Assembly: GCA_031255005.1 (NCBI GenBank)
Contig: JAIRTH010000001.1
Span: 768 to 64,767, forward strand
Direction of reading: 5' to 3'
DNA: 64,000 nucleotides
Source of the DNA: Puniceicoccales bacterium
GTDB lineage: Bacteria; Verrucomicrobiota; Verrucomicrobiia; Opitutales; LL51
Each line of letters begins with the position of its first letter. Within the stretch, counting starts at the first letter, position 1. Both the position numbers and the translations under genes were made by a program. The notes beneath the pieces are model-generated. The model was given only the letters and a program-made list of their open reading frames with translations. It searched no databases and was not told the origin of the DNA. This document shows positions 16,008-59,558 of this stretch, piece after piece.

Positions 16008-16298
16008 TCAAACAACCTCTATTTTCTGTTCTTTTTTAATGCCGACTATCGCAAGCTTTTTGCAACTCGTTCTGCCATAGCACCCGCGTCGCGATCTATC
16101 TCTTTTCAATTTTCCACGCCTAATAATCGTATTGATGCTAACAACATCCACCCCAAAGGCTTTTTCAATGGCATGCTTAATAGACATCTTGTTTGCGCCT
16201 CGATGAACCTCAAATGCATATTGATTTAACATAGATGATAGACCTGTAAACTTTTCTGTACAGTAGATACGAGTCAAAATTTTGTCAATAAAAATCAT
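16008..16298 (-). CDS. rplW: 50S ribosomal protein L23
   Basis: 'YAFEVHRGANKMSIKHAIEKAFGVDVVSINT' and position between rplD and rplB. Confidence 0.9.
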   Translation of the reverse strand: MIFIDKILTRIYCTEKFTGLSSMLNQYAFEVHRGANKMSIKHAIEKAFGVDVVSINTIIRRGKLKRDRSRRGCYGRTSCKKLAIVGIKKEQKIEVV

Positions 16299-25374: not shown

Positions 25375-28300
25375 TTAATCAACAAAACTGTCTTCGTTTT
25401 CGAGTCTTACATCCAGGCATAGACTTTGAATTTCCTTCATAAGTACATTAAATGACTGAGGCATACCGGCTTGCAGTGAATTATCACCTTTAACCAGTGA
25501 CTCATAGGTTTTGGTCCTACCTTGGACATCATCGGATTTGACCGTTAAAAGTTCTTGCAATGTATAGGCTGCACCGTAGGCTTCCAGTGCCCAGACTTCC
25601 ATTTCACCAAATCTCTGACCGCCATATTGGGCTTTGCCGCCAAGCGGTTGTTGGGTTATCAGACTGTATGGTCCCACGGCTCTGGCATGTATCTTGTTGG
25701 ACACGAGGTGGTTCAATTTCATCATATATATGTATCCTACCACCACGTCTTGATCGAAGATTTCACCGGTTAGTCCGTCGAAAAGACGGGATTTACCGGT
25801 TTCGGGGAGATCTGCTTTTTTAAGAAACTCTCGAATTTTCAATTCCGGCATTCCATCAAATATGGGAGTTGCTGCTTTTAGGCCGAGCTTTTGGCAAGCC
25901 CAACCGAGATGAGTTTCTAAGACCTGACCGACATTCATTCGGCTTGGGACGCCCAGCGGATTTAGGATGATATCCACCGGTGTGCCATCGGGCAAAAATG
26001 GCATATCTTCTTGCCGCACAATGTTGGAAACAACACCTTTATTTCCGTGACGCCCAGCCATTTTATCGCCCACCTGAATCTTTCGTTTAGTGGCTATGTA
26101 GACCTTCACATTCTTTATAATGCCGCTGTCATCTATGTCACCGGATTCGATGGATTCTATTTTTTTAACCCTTTCTTGCTCAAGTTCTTCGAATCTACCT
26201 TTGTAATTTTCAACTATTTCCATGATTCGGTTTTTAACCGGCGAAGCGGCGATTTCCACCGAGTCGAAACAGGAAGCTAATTTGCGAAGCAGAGTTTTGG
26301 TTATTTTTCTATTTGCTGGTATAATTATTTCGCCATTTAAACCATTTATGACATCAAGCGGAATTTTTTCGCCGAGCAAAATACTGGATAGCGCTTCGGT
26401 CAGATCATCCTTCAATTTGTCGGATTGACTACGAAATTCCTCATTGACTTTCTTTGTTCTACGTCGCAAATCAGCCGTCGAAATATCTTCTTTTTCTCGA
26501 TCAATGTGTCCGGATACCTTCACATCCATGACTATGCCAGAACATCCCGGTGGTACAGTAAGCGACGAATCTCGGACATCGTCGGCTTTTTCGCCGAAAA
26601 TCGCTCGGAGTAATTTTTCTTCGGGGATCAAATCGGTTTCACTTTTGGGAGTTATTTTACCCACAAGTATATCTCCAGGTTTTACTTCTGCACCAATTTT
26701 TATTACACCGTCTCTGCCAAGATTTTTCAATGCCTCTTCGCTGACATTGGGAATATCTTTCGTTATTTCTTCGGCACCAAGTTTTGTGTCTCGGGCCACC
26801 ACTTCGAATTCCTCTATGTGAATAGATGTGAACACATCGTCTTTTATCAGCCTGTCGCTCAATATAATAGCATCCTGGAAGTTGTAACCGTTCCAGGGCA
26901 TGAATGCTACCAAGACATTTCGACCCAGTGCGAGTTCGCCATTGTCAGTGGCTGCGCCGTCGGCTAAAACATCTCCGGCACAGACGCTTTGACCCCTTTG
27001 GACCTCTGGTCTTTGATTAAAGCAGGTGGCGGCATTGGATCGTACAAATTTTCGCAAATTATATACCGATAAGTCCTTGTTCGCTATAGCCTTAGAGTCA
27101 ATTCTTTTGGGAAGCTTACCATCTTTGGTGACTATTATGCGAGATGAATCGACCGAGGTTACGATTCCGTCAAATTTTGCAATTACCACATTTTTCGAAT
27201 CGACTGCCACTCTTTTTTCTATGCCGGTACCGACGAAAGGCGCTTCCGGAGCGATTAATGGCACTCCTTGACGTTGCATGTTCGAGCCCATCAACGCTCG
27301 GGCTGGATCGTCGTGTTCGATAAAAGGGATTAATCCGGCGGCGACCGATAGAACCTGTTTTGGCGAAACATCCATGAAATTTACCTCTCGAGGATCCACT
27401 TCCAGAAATGCATCTCCCTTTCTGACTTGTACTTTGCCCACAAGATATCCATTTCCATCCACTTCAGAATTTGCCTGGGCGATGACTGCATCTTCCTCTT
27501 CGGAGGCATCCATGTACATCACTTCGTCTGTAACCTTGCCTTTTTTGACCACGCGATAGGGCGTTTCGATGAAACCAAACTCATTGATTTTGGCATAGAT
27601 ACTGAGCGAATTTATCAATCCAATGTTTGGACCTTCCGGTGTTTCTATGGGGCAAATTCTGCCGTAGTGAGAAGTATGCACATCCCGAACGTCAAGACCA
27701 GCTCTGTCACGGCTCAATCCTCCTGGCCCTAAAGCAGATAATCTGCGTTTGTGAGCCAGCTCAGCCAGTGGATTAATTTGATCCATAAATTGAGATAACT
27801 GACTGCGGGCGAAGAAGTCGCGAATCACGCTCATGAATATTTTTGGATTGACTAATTTTTGCGGAACAATGGCATCGACACTGTTATCAAATAATGCAAT
27901 TCGTTCTTTTACAAGACGTTCCATTCTTGATAAGCCTATTCTACATTGATTCATGAGAAGCTCGCCCACATTGCGAATTCTTCTATTGCCGAGGTGGTCT
28001 ATGTCGTCGATGGAATGCTCTCCTTTTTTTAGTCGACATAGCCTTTTGGTTGCTTCCACAATGTCATTGGCGTCCAGAAGCCTGTCCTCTAAATTCCTGC
28101 GCATCTTGAGCTTCTGGTTCAATTTTTTTCTACCAACCCGACCCAAATCATAGCGTTTGCGATCTCCAAATAGCCGCAACATCATTGCCTTGGCATTGGT
28201 GGTGGTGGCTGGTTCGCCGGGTCGAAGTTTTCGATACATTTCTCTCAGCGCTTCGTCTGTATTTTTTGTGGTATCTTTCTTTAGACTGCGCACGATCATA

Positions 28301-29139
28301 CCGTCATCTAAGCTCGCATCCACCACAGAGATATGTGCAATGCCGGCATTTTTAAATGTGTCTATAATGGTTTTCGAAAGCTGTTCATGTTCCCTGGCTA
28401 ATACAATTCCATCTTTTGTGTCGATAATATCTTCTACCAGAACGTAATCCGAAATGTTGTCGCATTGATCAAAAAATTCTAATGGTTTTTCTTCTAAATT
28501 ATAAAATAATTTGAGTATTTCTATGTCAGATCCATGACCAAATGCACGTAACAGTGTGGTAACCAAGAACTTCCTTCGACGTCTTCGGCGATCCAAATAA
28601 ACATACAGTAAATCGCTTTGGTCGAATTGAACTTCTATCCAAGTGCCGCGATCTGGAATTACTCGGAAGGAGTACAAAATTTTTCCACTGGTATGTCGAG
28701 TTCCTTCGTAGCATATGCCTGGAGATCTATGTAGTTGACTGACAACGACGCGCTCAGCACCATTTATCACAAAAGAACCACGTTCTCCCATTATTGGTAA
28801 TTCTCCAAAATATATCTCCTCTTCTTTTATTTCGTTACCTTCTCGTAATCTAAGTGTCACATACAGAGAGGTCGAATAGGTAATGCCCTCACGCACGCAG
28901 TAATCTTCATGATGCCGCGGTTCACAAATTCTATAGGAAACATATTCAAGGCTGCAACGCCCATCATAGCTTCCTATGGGAAAAAATTCGCGAAGGACGC
29001 TTTCTAGCCCAACATCCATGCGATTGCTAATGGGCACATTTTTTTGAAGAAATTCGTCAAAAGAATTTACCTGAATTTCTATGAAATTTGGCGGAGCTAT
29101 TACCTCTTTAAGTCGCCCGAAATCAACACGTTCTGACAT
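25375..29139 (-). CDS. rpoB: DNA-directed RNA polymerase subunit beta
   Basis: 'GRHGNKGVVS', 'PFIEHDDPARALMGSNMQRQ', 'PSRMNVGQ', 1254 aa. Confidence 0.97.
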   Translation of the reverse strand: MSERVDFGRLKEVIAPPNFIEIQVNSFDEFLQKNVPISNRMDVGLESVLREFFPIGSYDGRCSLEYVSYRICEPRHHEDYCVREGITYSTSLYVTLRLREGNEIKEEEIYFGELPIMGERGSFVINGAERVVVSQLHRSPGICYEGTRHTSGKILYSFRVIPDRGTWIEVQFDQSDLLYVYLDRRRRRRKFLVTTLLRAFGHGSDIEILKLFYNLEEKPLEFFDQCDNISDYVLVEDIIDTKDGIVLAREHEQLSKTIIDTFKNAGIAHISVVDASLDDGMIVRSLKKDTTKNTDEALREMYRKLRPGEPATTTNAKAMMLRLFGDRKRYDLGRVGRKKLNQKLKMRRNLEDRLLDANDIVEATKRLCRLKKGEHSIDDIDHLGNRRIRNVGELLMNQCRIGLSRMERLVKERIALFDNSVDAIVPQKLVNPKIFMSVIRDFFARSQLSQFMDQINPLAELAHKRRLSALGPGGLSRDRAGLDVRDVHTSHYGRICPIETPEGPNIGLINSLSIYAKINEFGFIETPYRVVKKGKVTDEVMYMDASEEEDAVIAQANSEVDGNGYLVGKVQVRKGDAFLEVDPREVNFMDVSPKQVLSVAAGLIPFIEHDDPARALMGSNMQRQGVPLIAPEAPFVGTGIEKRVAVDSKNVVIAKFDGIVTSVDSSRIIVTKDGKLPKRIDSKAIANKDLSVYNLRKFVRSNAATCFNQRPEVQRGQSVCAGDVLADGAATDNGELALGRNVLVAFMPWNGYNFQDAIILSDRLIKDDVFTSIHIEEFEVVARDTKLGAEEITKDIPNVSEEALKNLGRDGVIKIGAEVKPGDILVGKITPKSETDLIPEEKLLRAIFGEKADDVRDSSLTVPPGCSGIVMDVKVSGHIDREKEDISTADLRRRTKKVNEEFRSQSDKLKDDLTEALSSILLGEKIPLDVINGLNGEIIIPANRKITKTLLRKLASCFDSVEIAASPVKNRIMEIVENYKGRFEELEQERVKKIESIESGDIDDSGIIKNVKVYIATKRKIQVGDKMAGRHGNKGVVSNIVRQEDMPFLPDGTPVDIILNPLGVPSRMNVGQVLETHLGWACQKLGLKAATPIFDGMPELKIREFLKKADLPETGKSRLFDGLTGEIFDQDVVVGYIYMMKLNHLVSNKIHARAVGPYSLITQQPLGGKAQYGGQRFGEMEVWALEAYGAAYTLQELLTVKSDDVQGRTKTYESLVKGDNSLQAGMPQSFNVLMKEIQSLCLDVRLENEDSFVD

Positions 29140-55223: not shown

Positions 55224-56279
55224 CTAGTTATTTATTGTACATTTAGAGCTATCTTTACAGCTATCATCGGTATAGATATTTGGTGATTCCTCTTCGTCAT
55301 TGCCTTCCATGTAGTTGCTATCTTCATCGCCGAAATTCTCATCGGATGTGCTATTATTGGCACTGCCTTCGCTATCTTCGGCATTCAGCCATTGGGTAAT
55401 CTTATTAATGGCACAATTAAAGATTTCTTGAACATCAGCATTTGTAGTGGAAGGTAGACAGAGTATAAGATCATAGAGTTCATAATGAACGATAATACTA
55501 ATTATTTTTCCAATAAATTTCACCAATACACCTATGTCCGGCGCTTCAGAAAAATTTAGTATATCAATGGAATTTGGCGTTTCGGCAGAATTTGGCGTTT
55601 CGGCAGAATTTATGGCATAAACAATCTGATAAATTGACCATGTAATCACTGCAGGACATCTATATTCTGGATCAAATATTCCGAGCGTTCCTGTATCCTC
55701 GCCTTCGGTTTCATTACTCGATAGATTGATCAATTGTGATCTTAATAATGCTGCAGGTATATGTAATTTATTCATAAAACGATTCATAAAATTTTTCCAT
55801 TTTTCAGATATTAAATTATATTCTTCGATTAACCAGTTTGTTACATTAGGATCATAGCGACAGCAAATTTCGTTCCATATGTAAAAAAGACGCAGCACAT
55901 CTTTACAAATTGCAGTATCATTACTGACTAAGGTAGTGCTATTAATGCTATTGTTAATATTATTTTCTATTTTATCGAATAAGTTTTTGAGGAAACCAAT
56001 ATTTCGTGAATTTAAGGCGGATTTGGTAATACTTTTTATAATGATTTCGAGAGAAATATATTCATTGTCATGGGATAAATAGAACTGCTGGTGGCCGATG
56101 GGGATATTATATTTTTGCTTATCCAGTAAATTTTCGAAAATGGACAATTCGGTTGTCGCAGTTTCTTGTTCCTGAGATTCTCCTTTGTCATCGGCATTAT
56201 CGCCACCATGACTATTAATAAACAAGCCGCCAAATAAAATTTGGCAGCTAAGAACACTAGTTAAAACTATTTTTTTCAC
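55224..56279 (-). CDS. Hypothetical secreted protein with acidic termini (ORFan)
   Basis: Signal-peptide-like 'MKKIVLTSVLSCQILFGGLFINSHG', AETPNS x2 repeat, acidic C-terminus 'DENFGDEDSNYMEGNDEEE'. No family recognised. Confidence 0.6.
   Translation of the reverse strand: MKKIVLTSVLSCQILFGGLFINSHGGDNADDKGESQEQETATTELSIFENLLDKQKYNIPIGHQQFYLSHDNEYISLEIIIKSITKSALNSRNIGFLKNLFDKIENNINNSINSTTLVSNDTAICKDVLRLFYIWNEICCRYDPNVTNWLIEEYNLISEKWKNFMNRFMNKLHIPAALLRSQLINLSSNETEGEDTGTLGIFDPEYRCPAVITWSIYQIVYAINSAETPNSAETPNSIDILNFSEAPDIGVLVKFIGKIISIIVHYELYDLILCLPSTTNADVQEIFNCAINKITQWLNAEDSEGSANNSTSDENFGDEDSNYMEGNDEEESPNIYTDDSCKDSSKCTINN
55570..55611. repeat. 18-bp tandem repeat (2.3 copies) inside the 351-aa gene
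   Basis: gaatttggcgtttcggca x2 plus a partial copy. Encodes AETPNS AETPNS. Confidence 0.9.
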
Positions 56280-56288
56280 GATAATTTA

Positions 56289-57314
56289 TTAATCCTGAGG
56301 CCCATCAGCTTGAATGGAACTATTTTCAAGCGAAGTATCTTTCAAATCATTATATATTTCATAAAATGTTTTTCCAGAATCGGTTTTTTTGGCTTCGATA
56401 AAGAATGCTTTATTTTTAGCTGACTTTTCGATTTTTTCGTGTATTTCTTCCATATTTTGTAATATTTTACATAAATCTTCATCTGATGCATTTTTATTAT
56501 AGGTAAATTTATTCAACCAATCTATACAATACAACAGCATCTGATTATCGTTTAAAGAAGTTGTTTCATTGGCAGCTTTATTCAGCCAGAATGATATGAG
56601 CTCAAAGATGGAAACTAATTTGTTTTTAGGATCTGATAAAAATTCATTCAATATTGGTATAATATTTTTGCACGTATCTTTAAAATTATCATCAGCATAT
56701 TTGATTACATTGGCACCATTTATTAAATCCATTATTAAACATGCATAGCCACCAATTTTAGCTATCTGCCCATCGTCTAAATTCTCCATTGTGCATAGTT
56801 TTTCTAATTTTTGGAGCACATCGAGAATGATATGTAACACACTTAGTACCACATTTTTATCCGAATTTTTGTCGTCTATTTTATTTTTAATTTCTTCCAC
56901 GAGAGCAGAAACGTTTTCAATGTAGGCATTCACATCATTTATAGACGTTTCATCATTATCTGTAAGTTCTTCGATCTGAGTATTCCGATCTAAATCTAGT
57001 GCTTCTGCTGATAAATCTAATGCTTCTGCTGATACAGCCTGTGCGGCATTTAATTCTCCTTGATTTTCAGCGACTTCATCCGATGCGGCATTCAGTTCTC
57101 TTTGATTTTCAGCGGCTTCATTTTCAATTGGTTGTACCACTATTTCTATGATCATTTCTTCATTTACTTGTCTTCGAACAGTTGATTCAGTATCATTGCC
57201 TTCTATTATATTAATATTATTTATATAATCTTTTGCAGATAAATTCCATGGTAGAAATGAAGAGCACAGTGTCCCAACCAAAGCCAATCTTTTTATAATA
57301 ATTTCATTTTTCAT
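56289..57314 (-). CDS. Hypothetical secreted protein with acidic repeat region (ORFan)
   Basis: Signal-peptide-like 'MKNEIIIKRLALVGTLCSSFLPWNLSA'. Repeats 'AENQ(R/G)ELNAA' and 'SAEALDL' x2. No family recognised. Confidence 0.6.
   Translation of the reverse strand: MKNEIIIKRLALVGTLCSSFLPWNLSAKDYINNINIIEGNDTESTVRRQVNEEMIIEIVVQPIENEAAENQRELNAASDEVAENQGELNAAQAVSAEALDLSAEALDLDRNTQIEELTDNDETSINDVNAYIENVSALVEEIKNKIDDKNSDKNVVLSVLHIILDVLQKLEKLCTMENLDDGQIAKIGGYACLIMDLINGANVIKYADDNFKDTCKNIIPILNEFLSDPKNKLVSIFELISFWLNKAANETTSLNDNQMLLYCIDWLNKFTYNKNASDEDLCKILQNMEEIHEKIEKSAKNKAFFIEAKKTDSGKTFYEIYNDLKDTSLENSSIQADGPQD
56991..57032. repeat. 21-bp tandem duplication inside the 341-aa gene
   Basis: taaatcta[g/a]tgcttctgctga x2. 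Encodes SAEALDL twice. Confidence 0.9.
57042..57125. repeat. 42-bp imperfect tandem duplication inside the 341-aa gene
   Basis: tgcggcatttaattctccttgattttcagcgacttcatccga versus tgcggcattcagttctctttgattttcagcggcttcatt... Encodes two 14-aa AENQxELNAA units. Confidence 0.8.
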
Positions 57315-57453
57315 AAGTCGTCTCCTATTTTTGCGTTATATCGACGAACGTCAAGCCTATGATTTATGTTTTTTTTACAATTATATAAAATTCAAGTTTG
57401 TAGACCTTTACCATTGACAATTATTTTAGCTTTTATGCACTAAATGGTGTTTT

Positions 57454-57530
57454 GGGGGATTAGCTCAGCTGGTTAGAGCATCTGCTTCACACGCAGGGGG
57501 TCGGTGGTTCGAGTCCACTATCTCCCACCA
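57454..57530 (+). tRNA. tRNA-Val (anticodon CAC)
   Basis: GGGGGATTAGCTCAGCTGGTTAGAGCATCTGCTTCACACGCAGGGGGTCGGTGGTTCGAGTCCACTATCTCCCACCA. Anticodon stem TCTGC/GCAGG, loop TTCACAC. Confidence 0.9.
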
Positions 57531-57666: not shown

Positions 57667-58152
57667 TTATTTATTGATTTTTGATGAAGTGGGTATCAAT
57701 TTTTTAGCTCTGGTTTTATTCGTAGATGGTTTTCTGCGGCTATCCAATTTGAGGAAGGAAGTTTTCTTTGGCGAGGATTTTTTTCTAACTTGTGGTTTTT
57801 TAGGGTTTTGATAGCTATGTTCTTGAGAATAAAATGGATCTGGCAAAAAGCCCACTTCATCAATTTCTTCGGCAACTTCGTCGATGATGCAATCATTATC
57901 TATTCTATTGTAATAGTGGTGTAGCTCAAGAAATGGCCAATGGATTCTATCATTATTATTATAATCGCTGATTTTCATGCATTCGCGATAGGCCAGGATT
58001 AATATGGTGGCTGCATTTCTTGCCGTGGTTTGCTTCTTTGCAGAGAGATATGCATTGGCCATGTTTTTTCTATTTTTCACGGAATAAACAGTGCTGTCGA
58101 ATTCGAAGGCGGAAATCATTGGGCATAGAACAGCCATTACCAATATTGCCAA
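57667..58152 (-). CDS. Small signal-peptide protein with Lys/Arg-rich tail, paralog 1 of a local family
   Basis: Shares 'F(E)F...Y..K......Y....KQ.T..NAAT.L....RE' and 'I.EVA..I' with the next two loci. The frame stays open upstream to 58191 but has ATA where the paralogs have ATG. Confidence 0.55.
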   Translation of the reverse strand: MAILVMAVLCPMISAFEFDSTVYSVKNRKNMANAYLSAKKQTTARNAATILILAYRECMKISDYNNNDRIHWPFLELHHYYNRIDNDCIIDEVAEEIDEVGFLPDPFYSQEHSYQNPKKPQVRKKSSPKKTSFLKLDSRRKPSTNKTRAKKLIPTSSKINK

Positions 58153-58259
58153 AACGCTCAGCAGCTTAGTTATAATTGAGTGTAATTTTATTGCTCCATT
58201 GGGTCAATGCCATTAATGCAGGTATGAATAATACAGTGGGCTTTGGTGAGAATTTTTTT

Positions 58260-58781
58260 TTAATCATTAATTAACAATTTATTCATAACATATAGTATAT
58301 CTTCGCTTTGCAGTACTTCTTTTTCATTATTTTTTTCCTTTTGGTGTATTTTTTTCTGTTTAAGTAATCTCTTTTTTTTGTTTCTATTTTTTGCCATGGC
58401 CTTCTGTTGGGCGGTGGCACTTTCATTTTCATAAAAATTATCCTGTTGATCGAGCATGAATTCACTTTTTTCTATTTTTTTAGCAACTTCGTAGATAACA
58501 TTATTGGAATATAAGGAATTGAAATAATCATTTTGGTTAAGAAACTTAAATTTACCATGCCTAGTGGATCTATTGTTATTGGCTTGTGTGTATTCACGGA
58601 AGCCGAAGACCAGCAAGGTGGCTGCATTTTTTGATGTCTTTTGTTTGCTGGCTATTTTGTATAGGTCATACATGTCTTTCATGCATTTAATATTGTAAGT
58701 TTTTCCATAAAATTCGAATCCGGAGGCAGATAGACTGATGCTTATCAATCCTAATATACTTATTATTAATGTTTTATTCAT
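58260..58781 (-). CDS. Small signal-peptide protein with Lys-rich tail, paralog 2
   Basis: 'MNKTLIISILGLISISLSASG' signal peptide, conserved core 'KNAATLLVFGFREY' and 'VIYEVAKKIEKSEF', tail 'KNRNKKKRLLKQKKIHQKEK'. Confidence 0.6.
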   Translation of the reverse strand: MNKTLIISILGLISISLSASGFEFYGKTYNIKCMKDMYDLYKIASKQKTSKNAATLLVFGFREYTQANNNRSTRHGKFKFLNQNDYFNSLYSNNVIYEVAKKIEKSEFMLDQQDNFYENESATAQQKAMAKNRNKKKRLLKQKKIHQKEKNNEKEVLQSEDILYVMNKLLIND

Positions 58782-58872
58782 ATTTTTTTAACAATTTAAT
58801 ATGAATCAAATGTCAAATTTTTTAGCCATTATTTTTGGCTGTGGCAGATAACTTATATCCGCTTTGTAATTT

Positions 58873-59339
58873 TTATTCTTCGATTCCATTTTTTTTCTTA
58901 CATTCTTTCTTTGGTTTACGCAATGGCGCTTTTTTTATGTTTTTCGTCCTAACTCTAGTTTTGGTAGTGATATTTTCATCCATATCGCTATCTTTTTTTT
59001 GATTGATAATAAAATTTTCTTTCTTCATTTTTTCCATAACCTCATTTATGCCTTTTCATCAGCCATTATACAATGATCATCGTCATTATGAAGATCAAGG
59101 AAAGGCAATGATTTTACATTAAAAATTTTGTAGTCGACGGCCTTCATGTATTCTCAATGGGCCAAAATTAGCATGGTGGATGCATCCTTTGTGCTGCTTT
59201 GGCTATGGGCAATTTCGTACATATACTGCATGTTGCCTATGGTTTTAACTTTGTAAGCGATGCCATTAGGTCTGAATATGAAGGTAGATAGATGGATGCT
59301 CATTAGGCCTAATATGCTTATTGTTAATAATTTGTTCAT
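58873..59339 (-). pseudogene. Decayed paralog 3 of the small secreted family (in-frame TGA plus a frame change)
   Basis: 'MNKLLTISILGLMSIHLS...STMLILAH' stops at TGA (59156-59154), where paralog 1 has Arg ('LILAYRECMK' versus 'LILAH*EYMK'). Homology continues ('LPFLDLHN') to a second stop at 59048-59046, then resumes in another frame ('INEVMEKMKKENF...KKAPLRKPKKECKKK'). Confidence 0.75.
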
Positions 59340-59558
59340 GATTTTTGTTTATTTGGCCTATGAAATTGCTAGATCAATGGCATTTGTGTTATTTGGGCCA
59401 ATGGATTACGTTTTTTTATAGATTCAATGCTAGAGAGTTAAGTTTGTAGTCCTAGGTTTTTTACATTTACATCAGGACGCTTGGCCGCAAAATAAATTGT
59501 GGTATTTCCATGTTTTTTAATTGAAGAAGATTTGAATTTAGCCAGTGGATTATTCGCT

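Follow-up and report, generated by a model that had tools for sequence, protein, structure and literature searches.

The minus strand of a 64,000-nucleotide stretch of DNA from a Puniceicoccales bacterium (contig JAIRTH010000001.1; the whole stretch is called the window here) carries, at positions 57667 to 59339, three head-to-tail copies of a gene for small proteins with a common plan: a signal peptide, a core of ~90 residues, and a C-terminal tail rich in lysine and arginine. The family is real and has exactly three members in the window. When each copy is compared with the entire window by tblastn, the other two copies are the only matches (E-values from 1e-9 to 4e-16), and everything else has an E-value above 0.06. 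A sequence-only reading of this DNA, made by a model that ran no database searches, had proposed such a tandem family at this place, and the searches bear it out. We tentatively propose that these are fast-evolving proteins, exported by the Sec pathway, that act at the interface with a eukaryotic host, where their tails would either attach to polyanions (nucleic acid or chromatin, for example) or serve as nuclear localization signals (NLSs).

Copy 1 (57667 to 58152) encodes 161 amino acids when read from a TTG codon at 58150-58152, and is LBH49_00345 in the NCBI annotation. It is composed of a signal peptide (58108-58152), a core (57838-58107), a polybasic tail (57670-57837) and a stop codon (57667-57669). 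Copy 2 (58260 to 58781; 173 amino acids, LBH49_00350) has a signal peptide at 58719-58781 with predicted cleavage at ASG|FEF, a core at 58449-58718, and a tail at 58263-58448 (KNRNKKKRLLKQKKIHQK). Copy 3 (58873 to 59339) is interrupted: its first 61 codons (59157-59339) are followed by a TGA codon (59154-59156), a middle portion (59049-59153) that runs into a TAA codon (59046-59048), and, after a change of frame, a separate open reading frame (ORF) for the tail at 58873-59037 (KKAPLRKPKKECKKK). The cores of the three copies are 28-35% identical. The motifs and tail strings that the sequence-only reading had quoted are present, except that the 'F.F' motif is displaced in copy 3 (FIF|RP) and the 'PFL.LH' motif is missing from copy 2, which reads FKFLNQ. 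Copies 1 and 2 are found at NCBI in a metagenome-assembled genome (MAG) named 'Puniceicoccales bacterium', on a contig of 65,634 bp.

The C-terminus of copy 2 (...VMNKLLIND) resembles the MNKLLI with which family members begin. A 31-nucleotide direct repeat with 77% identity links the 3' end of this copy (58251-58281) to the region of its 5' start (58768-58798). This repeat could have been left behind when a fourth copy was deleted, or be a coincidence of low-complexity sequence.

By rule-based criteria, all 10 intact members of the family, including those from related genomes described below, combine a hydrophobic core among residues 1-25 with an (A/V/S/I)-x-(A/G) site immediately ahead of a conserved F-x-F. 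The best 10-residue hydrophobic windows score 2.2 to 3.6 on the Kyte-Doolittle scale. The intact members are therefore predicted to carry an export signal for Sec and signal peptidase I (SPase I), in agreement with the signal peptides that had been called from the sequence, and the mature proteins would be about 15 kDa. We considered whether they might be lipoproteins that are processed by SPase II, and rejected this idea since no lipobox, [LVI][ASTVI][GAS]C, is present. A cysteine does occur in the hydrophobic region of seven of the 11 members (ILC, MLC, or VLC), and lies near the end of that region in L161_c (ICW). However, this cysteine is preceded by leucine or isoleucine rather than by glycine, alanine, or serine, and it is absent in copies 2 and 3 and in L161_b.

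The core is predicted to form a ~90-residue fold, consisting of a beta-hairpin and three or four helices, that matches no known fold or family. In an AlphaFold2 model of the core (pLDDT 78.5, pTM 0.73), the beta-hairpin comes first, and the helices after it span mature residues 13-23, 29-46, 62-65, and 74-84. A model of the full mature protein renders the tail as a long helix with low to moderate confidence (block pLDDT 46-74). A Foldseek search of the PDB with the core yielded no significant match (best E-value 2.3, TM-scores of 0.3 to 0.4), a structure search of BFVD gave nothing with an E-value below 1, and neither Pfam nor NCBIfam assigned a family to any of the 11 members. A profile search against PDB sequences produced only a match to 7rdr, a designed circular tandem repeat protein (E-value 1e-10, no passing stretch), which we dismissed as an artefact of repeats or composition. 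The core could have belonged to a housekeeping periplasmic family, and these Pfam, NCBIfam, PDB profile, and PDB Foldseek results speak against that. Likeness to helical proteins of the CpxP/Spy type was sought as well, with no Pfam LTXXQ match and no Spy-like structure among the Foldseek PDB matches listed.

We collected 11 family members from five genomes: that of the window and four others that we call L001, L161 (JGI 3300042605, also present at NCBI as MAG LBB20 on a 101-kb contig), L163 (JGI 3300042612), and L165 (JGI 3300042636). A hidden Markov model profile of the family, searched against 1.84 billion representative proteins, found nine matches, all of which are from the window's contig or from L001, L161, L163, and L165. 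Word-indexed protein searches retrieved the proteins of the window itself and, beyond these, only P0003, P0007, and P0010. Scanning metagenomes with the family alignment gave 45 pattern matches, none of which was confirmed, and a scan with tmk, which relied on the too-generic pattern EGIEGTGK, detected only distant tmk genes with at most 48% identity. Judged by these searches, the family is restricted to one clade, vertically inherited, and previously undescribed. A Logan copy of L161, L162, differs from it by two substitutions in 4861 bp, one of which is explained by an N-to-D change between the two translations of copy b.

The array occupies the same slot in related loci. The gene order that is kept runs from tmk-holB-CesT through the array, on the opposite strand, to tRNA-Val(CAC), one or two acidic signal-peptide orphans, and a gene for an M50 peptidase; beyond the latter are an alpha/beta hydrolase gene, NIF3, and mreCB. 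In the window, the conserved anchor on one flank is the divergently transcribed thymidylate kinase gene tmk (59499-60188, plus strand), and tRNA-Val(CAC) (57454-57530, plus strand) is the conserved marker of the border where the array gives way to the acidic orphans. This tRNA gene is at the same boundary in all three loci that show it, the other two being L161 (10531-10607) and L165 (1193-1269). The window and L161 each have three array members, L163 and L165 have at least two on contigs that end there, and L001 has at least one, on a contig that shows the tmk-adjacent slot only. Because the same slot is occupied in related loci, the array is ancestral to the clade, and not a recent expansion. 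A birth-and-death pattern, as suggested by the sequence-only reading, is therefore an overstatement: the slot is fixed and the family tree is star-like, so that decay is visible but recent births are not.

Between genomes, the cores of family members align with 20-41% identity, and no pair exceeds 41%, whereas the neighbouring genes of the same loci are 57-96% identical. Specifically, identity to the window is 96% for mreB, 86-89% for CesT, 79-80% for tmk, 73-78% for NIF3, 69-74% for mreC, 68-76% for the alpha/beta hydrolase, 63-68% for holB, 60-67% for the M50 peptidase, and 57-72% for an ORF of 154 amino acids. A distance tree of the family is star-like, with all members deeply diverged, and since paralogs and orthologs share at most 41% amino acid identity, synonymous sites are saturated. 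The acidic orphans also diverge rapidly: the one of 351 amino acids is ~30% identical to its L165 counterpart, and for the one of 341 amino acids identity is 27% across 124 residues. On these comparisons, the island bounded by tmk and the M50 peptidase gene evolves far faster than its surroundings.

Copy 3 is a dead gene. Its TGA codon is codon 62, at a site where copy 1 has an arginine codon (CGC), copy 2 also has an arginine codon (CGT), and the L001 ortholog encodes lysine. The sequence-only reading had correctly placed this stop opposite an arginine of its paralog; the CGA to TGA origin that it offered is plausible from the aligned codons. A change of frame follows near 59046-59056, beyond which a basic tail ORF of 54 codons remains open, and the -3/-1 site for signal peptidase is gone according to the rule-based check. 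Some relatives, Candidatus Organicella and Candidatus Pinguicoccus, have recoded TGA, and we considered whether the TGA in copy 3 is read through in the same way. However, TGA terminates 14 of the 37 long ORFs in the window, including rpoC and holB, and it is therefore a genuine stop and not a tryptophan codon. Run SRR14710884 has also been assembled independently in Logan, and this assembly (L164) aligns to positions 57757-60075 of the window without gaps and with one mismatch over 2319 bp. Both lesions recur within this gapless match, and so are not assembly artefacts, which had been one way in which the decay of copy 3 could have been illusory. The single mismatch, at 57774, is non-synonymous and corresponds to S127T in the basic tail of copy 1. 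In L001, L161, and L163, the corresponding slot next to tmk holds an intact gene. Copy 3 thus combines an in-frame stop and a frameshift under a normal genetic code with intact homologs and an identical independent assembly, and is a pseudogene.

Copy 1 also has a damaged start, which the sequence-only reading had not picked up. In the DNA alignment, an ATA codon (58171-58173) stands at the site of the family's conserved ATG, which is present in copies 2 and 3 and in the L001 ortholog. The in-frame translation from this ATA, I-T-K-L-L-S-V-L, still aligns with the MNKLL... of other members, and L164 carries the site unchanged. The first usable start is the TTG codon seven codons further on, which leaves a signal peptide of 15 residues with an uncharged n-region. 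Annotations disagree about this start, with 137 amino acids called by NCBI, 150 by JGI, and 161 here. Translation of copy 1 may begin at this TTG, at the cost of a shorter signal peptide, or the gene may be in the process of becoming inactive. Copy 2 is the only unambiguously intact member in the window. With one copy dead and the start of another damaged, individual copies are dispensable.

Basic tails of this kind are uncommon in the window. Their net charge is positive (+4 to +18) in 10 of the 11 members, which span all five genomes, so that basicity is largely kept among orthologs. The tail of copy 1, for example, has 17 lysine or arginine residues and two acidic ones, and includes one SPKK. 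The tails are rich in lysine, arginine, proline, and serine, and are predicted to be poorly ordered. NLS patterns of the PSORT II type (pat4, pat7, or bipartite) were scored as K-K/R-x-K/R or a cluster of four basic residues, or as two basic residues followed by a spacer of 10-12 and three basic residues out of five. Such patterns occur in eight of the 11 tails, including those of all three copies in the window, and examples are KNRNKKKRLLKQKK, KSKPRRRKRPARSKNKRPVAKRM, KLKRRRKRKNKRNNR, KKKAKSRKRKRE, and KPRKQKKYRKKSKKSK. Among 72 non-overlapping ORFs of the window, a density of at least nine lysine or arginine residues per 20 is reached by copies 1 and 2 and by eight others. Six of the latter are ribosomal-protein-like, by virtue of their place in a block of ribosomal genes and not by individual identification; the others are an ORF of 96 amino acids (16008-16298) and one of 1254 amino acids (25375-29139) that is putatively rpoB by its size and position only.

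The organism provides a context in which such tails might be useful. The closest genome is MAG Gsp477_bin142 (NCBI locus-tag prefix LBI37), which is our L001: its tmk and that of the window are 79-80% identical, and the next best genomes reach at most 54%. Gsp477 is a hindgut metagenome of a lower termite, Glyptotermes sp., from Thailand (Mies et al., PMC11257099). Small, low-GC Opitutales MAGs of the GTDB families LL51 and UBA9783 are confined to lower termites (PMC11257099), and are considered to be endosymbionts of flagellates and relatives of the intranuclear Candidatus Nucleococcus (PMC11257099, PMC8204192). The bacterium is probably a genome-reduced verrucomicrobial symbiont of lower-termite guts, and probably lives inside protists, and a eukaryotic target is for that reason at least available.

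In the mechanism that we propose, the proteins would cross the inner membrane through Sec, where the signal peptide would be cleaved, and would then be released or exposed at the interface between symbiont and host. The tail would serve as an importin-dependent NLS or would bind polyanions, of which nucleic acid or chromatin of the host are the most plausible, and the core would supply a specific interaction. For an endonuclear symbiont, an NLS would be unnecessary and a chromatin-binding tail would make sense; for a cytoplasmic symbiont, the NLS reading applies. A host-directed function is suggested by composition together with context, namely a probable endosymbiont, a nearby conserved CesT chaperone, the orphan status of the family, and its extreme divergence. 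The symbiont lifestyle, passage beyond the periplasm, the ligand of the tail, and any nuclear role are inferred.

Several considerations weigh against a host-directed role, and some of them lead to other explanations. NLS patterns have low specificity, with frequent false positives in lysine-rich proteins, and no NLS-like basic cluster is present in three of the 11 members (L161_a, L163_2, and L165_1), so that the NLS-like tails noticed at first hold for most of the family and not for all of it. The tails cannot be aligned between members. On the coding strand they are 38-58% adenine, and AAA lysine codons (95 of 116) and AGA arginine codons (24 of 44) dominate. A mutational or compositional bias could therefore contribute to the excess of lysine and arginine, in sequence that is weakly constrained. 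Extending this idea, the tails might have no specific function, and instead reflect adenine-rich, low-complexity drift in an AT-biased, decaying genome, with the NLS likeness coincidental and the core alone functional, if anything is. The three members with non-basic tails, the pseudogene, the copy that lacks ATG, and a GC content of 0.33-0.36 at the locus, compared with about 0.40 on average in the window, all fit such drift. However, positive charge is kept in nearly all members despite a complete turnover of sequence, and a bias toward AAA hardly explains arginine-rich clusters such as KSKPRRRKRPARSKNKRP and KLKRRRKRKNKR. Moreover, the neighbouring orphans encode strongly acidic proteins at a similar adenine content (36-41%), which shows that composition by itself need not make a tail basic. 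We regard drift of the tails as an unlikely explanation.

Further objections to a host-directed role concern the route and the destination. Most signal-peptide proteins of bacteria with two membranes remain in the periplasm or the outer membrane, and we identified no route by which this family would be exported across the outer membrane. No likeness to known nucleus-targeted bacterial effectors, such as LntA, SET-domain effectors, or Ank proteins, emerged from Pfam, NCBIfam, PDB profile, or PDB Foldseek searches, and the placement of the window's MAG in the cluster of endosymbionts or of Nucleococcus is one that we infer. The proteins might instead be residents of the symbiont's own envelope, in the periplasm or the outer membrane, whose tails anchor them to lipid A or lipopolysaccharide (LPS) or to acidic phospholipids, or pair with the acidic neighbours; rapid divergence would then result from surface exposure or from relaxed constraint in a shrinking genome. 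This fate is the default for Sec substrates in such bacteria, and no outer-membrane secretion system is linked to the family. Strongly acidic signal-peptide orphans are always encoded beside the array, and the window contains LPS and envelope genes, including a lipid A acyltransferase-heptosyltransferase fusion and genes for MreB and MreC. Yet the proteins have no similarity to known periplasmic families, those of the CpxP/Spy type included, their divergence is extreme relative to all neighbours, and the copies are dispensable. The tails are as densely charged as proteins of the ribosomal class, and such a density is more usual among proteins that bind nucleic acids. We consider residence in the envelope somewhat doubtful, and rank it next after the host-interface reading.

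The acidic orphans that would take part in such pairing are encoded on the minus strand at 55224-56279 (351 amino acids) and 56289-57314 (341 amino acids), and have positional counterparts in L161 and L165. They contain 52 and 63 acidic residues, respectively, compared with 24 and 32 lysine or arginine residues. Their N-termini resemble signal peptides, and they include short internal repeats (AETPNS twice, SAEALDL twice, and AENQxELNAA twice). That they are charge-complementary partners of the basic-tailed proteins is speculation.

On the other side of the array, beyond tmk-holB and on the plus strand, there is a gene for a CesT-family type III secretion chaperone (61079-61501; Pfam PF05932, 52 bits). 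It overlaps the end of holB, lies 1.7 kb from the array, and is 86-89% identical to its orthologs in L161 and L001. Two orphan ORFs follow on the same strand, at 61507-62724 (405 amino acids) and 62875-63234 (119 amino acids), and their first ~100 residues are 55% identical to each other (E-value 3e-30). This likeness is the pattern expected of type III effectors with a common chaperone-binding N-terminal module. CesT and these candidate effectors suggest that the symbiont has a type III system and injects proteins into a eukaryotic cell. The basic-tailed proteins themselves do not look like type III effectors, as their N-termini are hydrophobic, cleavable, and of the Sec type.

A scan with Rfam and for promoters and terminators added nothing at the locus besides tRNA-Val. 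A 14-nucleotide direct repeat, AAGTTTGTAG(A/T)CCT, is present at 57394-57407 and 59440-59453 on the plus strand, and so brackets tRNA-Val and the three-gene array. Each copy of the repeat precedes a -35-like hexamer by ~10-15 nucleotides, in front of tRNA-Val in one case and of tmk, also on the plus strand, in the other. The window holds no further copies, and L161 and L165 have none. The repeat may be due to chance, or may be a shared promoter-proximal element.

Positively charged C-terminal tails are characteristic of type IV secretion substrates, and the tails of this family could likewise be translocation signals for a dedicated secretion system, as in substrates of the VirB/VirD4 type. 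One of the 11 members gives an NCBIfam match to the Dot/Icm effector Lem8, which we rejected as sub-threshold (E-value 0.004). Substrates of type IV and type III systems normally lack a cleavable Sec signal peptide, however, and this family has one. Neither the window nor the related loci retrieved contain type IV genes, and the sole secretion-related neighbour is the type III chaperone, which has candidate effectors of its own downstream. A role of the tails as secretion signals is very unlikely. It is also very unlikely that the proteins are cationic antimicrobials, or resemble bacteriocins, and are directed against bacteria that share the flagellate or the gut. The proteins are small, exported, cationic, fast-evolving, and encoded in tandem arrays, as would suit such agents. 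However, no recognizable immunity, processing, or ABC-export genes adjoin the array here, the proteins have no Pfam or NCBIfam match, and their ~150 amino acids and folded core exceed the usual size of cationic peptides.

For the host-interface function that we tentatively favour, the closest functional analogue is LntA of Listeria monocytogenes, which is likewise small, basic, helical, lineage-specific, and made with a cleaved Sec signal peptide. LntA is a nucleomodulin that has a putative bipartite NLS and acts in the host nucleus (PMC3903274). There is no similarity to it in sequence or fold, and its structure (2XL4) is not among the 50 Foldseek matches listed. The basic residues of LntA are on the surface of a five-helix bundle, whereas those of the present family are in a separate C-terminal tail. 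LntA also comes from a Gram-positive bacterium with no outer membrane to cross.

Other intracellular or intranuclear bacteria provide examples of signal-peptide proteins that enter the host compartment and make contact with its nucleus or nuclear DNA. In Chlamydia, proteins secreted by way of Sec, such as CT311, reach the host cytosol or nucleus. In Holospora obtusa, which is endonuclear, a periplasmic protein of 63 kDa is set free and attaches to the DNA of the macronucleus. Chlamydia belongs to the same Planctomycetes-Verrucomicrobia-Chlamydiae (PVC) superphylum as Verrucomicrobiota. There is no homology to either example, and their localizations are experimental, whereas the role of the present family is predicted. 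The family also resembles lineage-specific effector arrays, such as type III families with common N-terminal modules, in being orphan, fast-evolving, and clustered in a low-GC island with occasional pseudogenes. It differs from them by its Sec signal peptides and by a fixed, ancient, three-slot array with no recent change in copy number.

The tails themselves invite comparison with the C-terminal domain of histone H1 and with chlamydial Hc1 and Hc2, which are similarly rich in lysine, proline, serine, and alanine and have a comparable charge density; the single SPKK, in copy 1, could be due to chance. Those proteins lack a signal peptide and act on their own chromatin, and no Pfam histone-like match was found here. 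A more specific version of the host-directed idea, which we rate as quite unlikely, is that the bacterium belongs to the Nucleococcus cluster, in which some endosymbionts inhabit the nuclei of protists, and exports histone-H1-like binders of chromatin or nucleic acid, built on an unseen fold, that would tether it to host chromatin or modulate that chromatin. In this case, the family would be the first set of effectors described from symbionts that live inside the nuclei or cells of termite-gut flagellates, and the acidic exported neighbours might be charge-neutralizing partners of the H1-like binders.

The verrucomicrobial endosymbionts of termite-gut flagellates, including the intranuclear Candidatus Nucleococcus, are uncultured, and in the literature that we searched we found no description of a host-interaction protein from them. 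Should the tails be compositional noise, the locus would still be a clean case of a fast-evolving, partly decaying orphan island at a fixed position of a reduced genome. The locus offers short, easily synthesized candidates, in the form of an orphan exported family with a type III chaperone and candidate effectors nearby.

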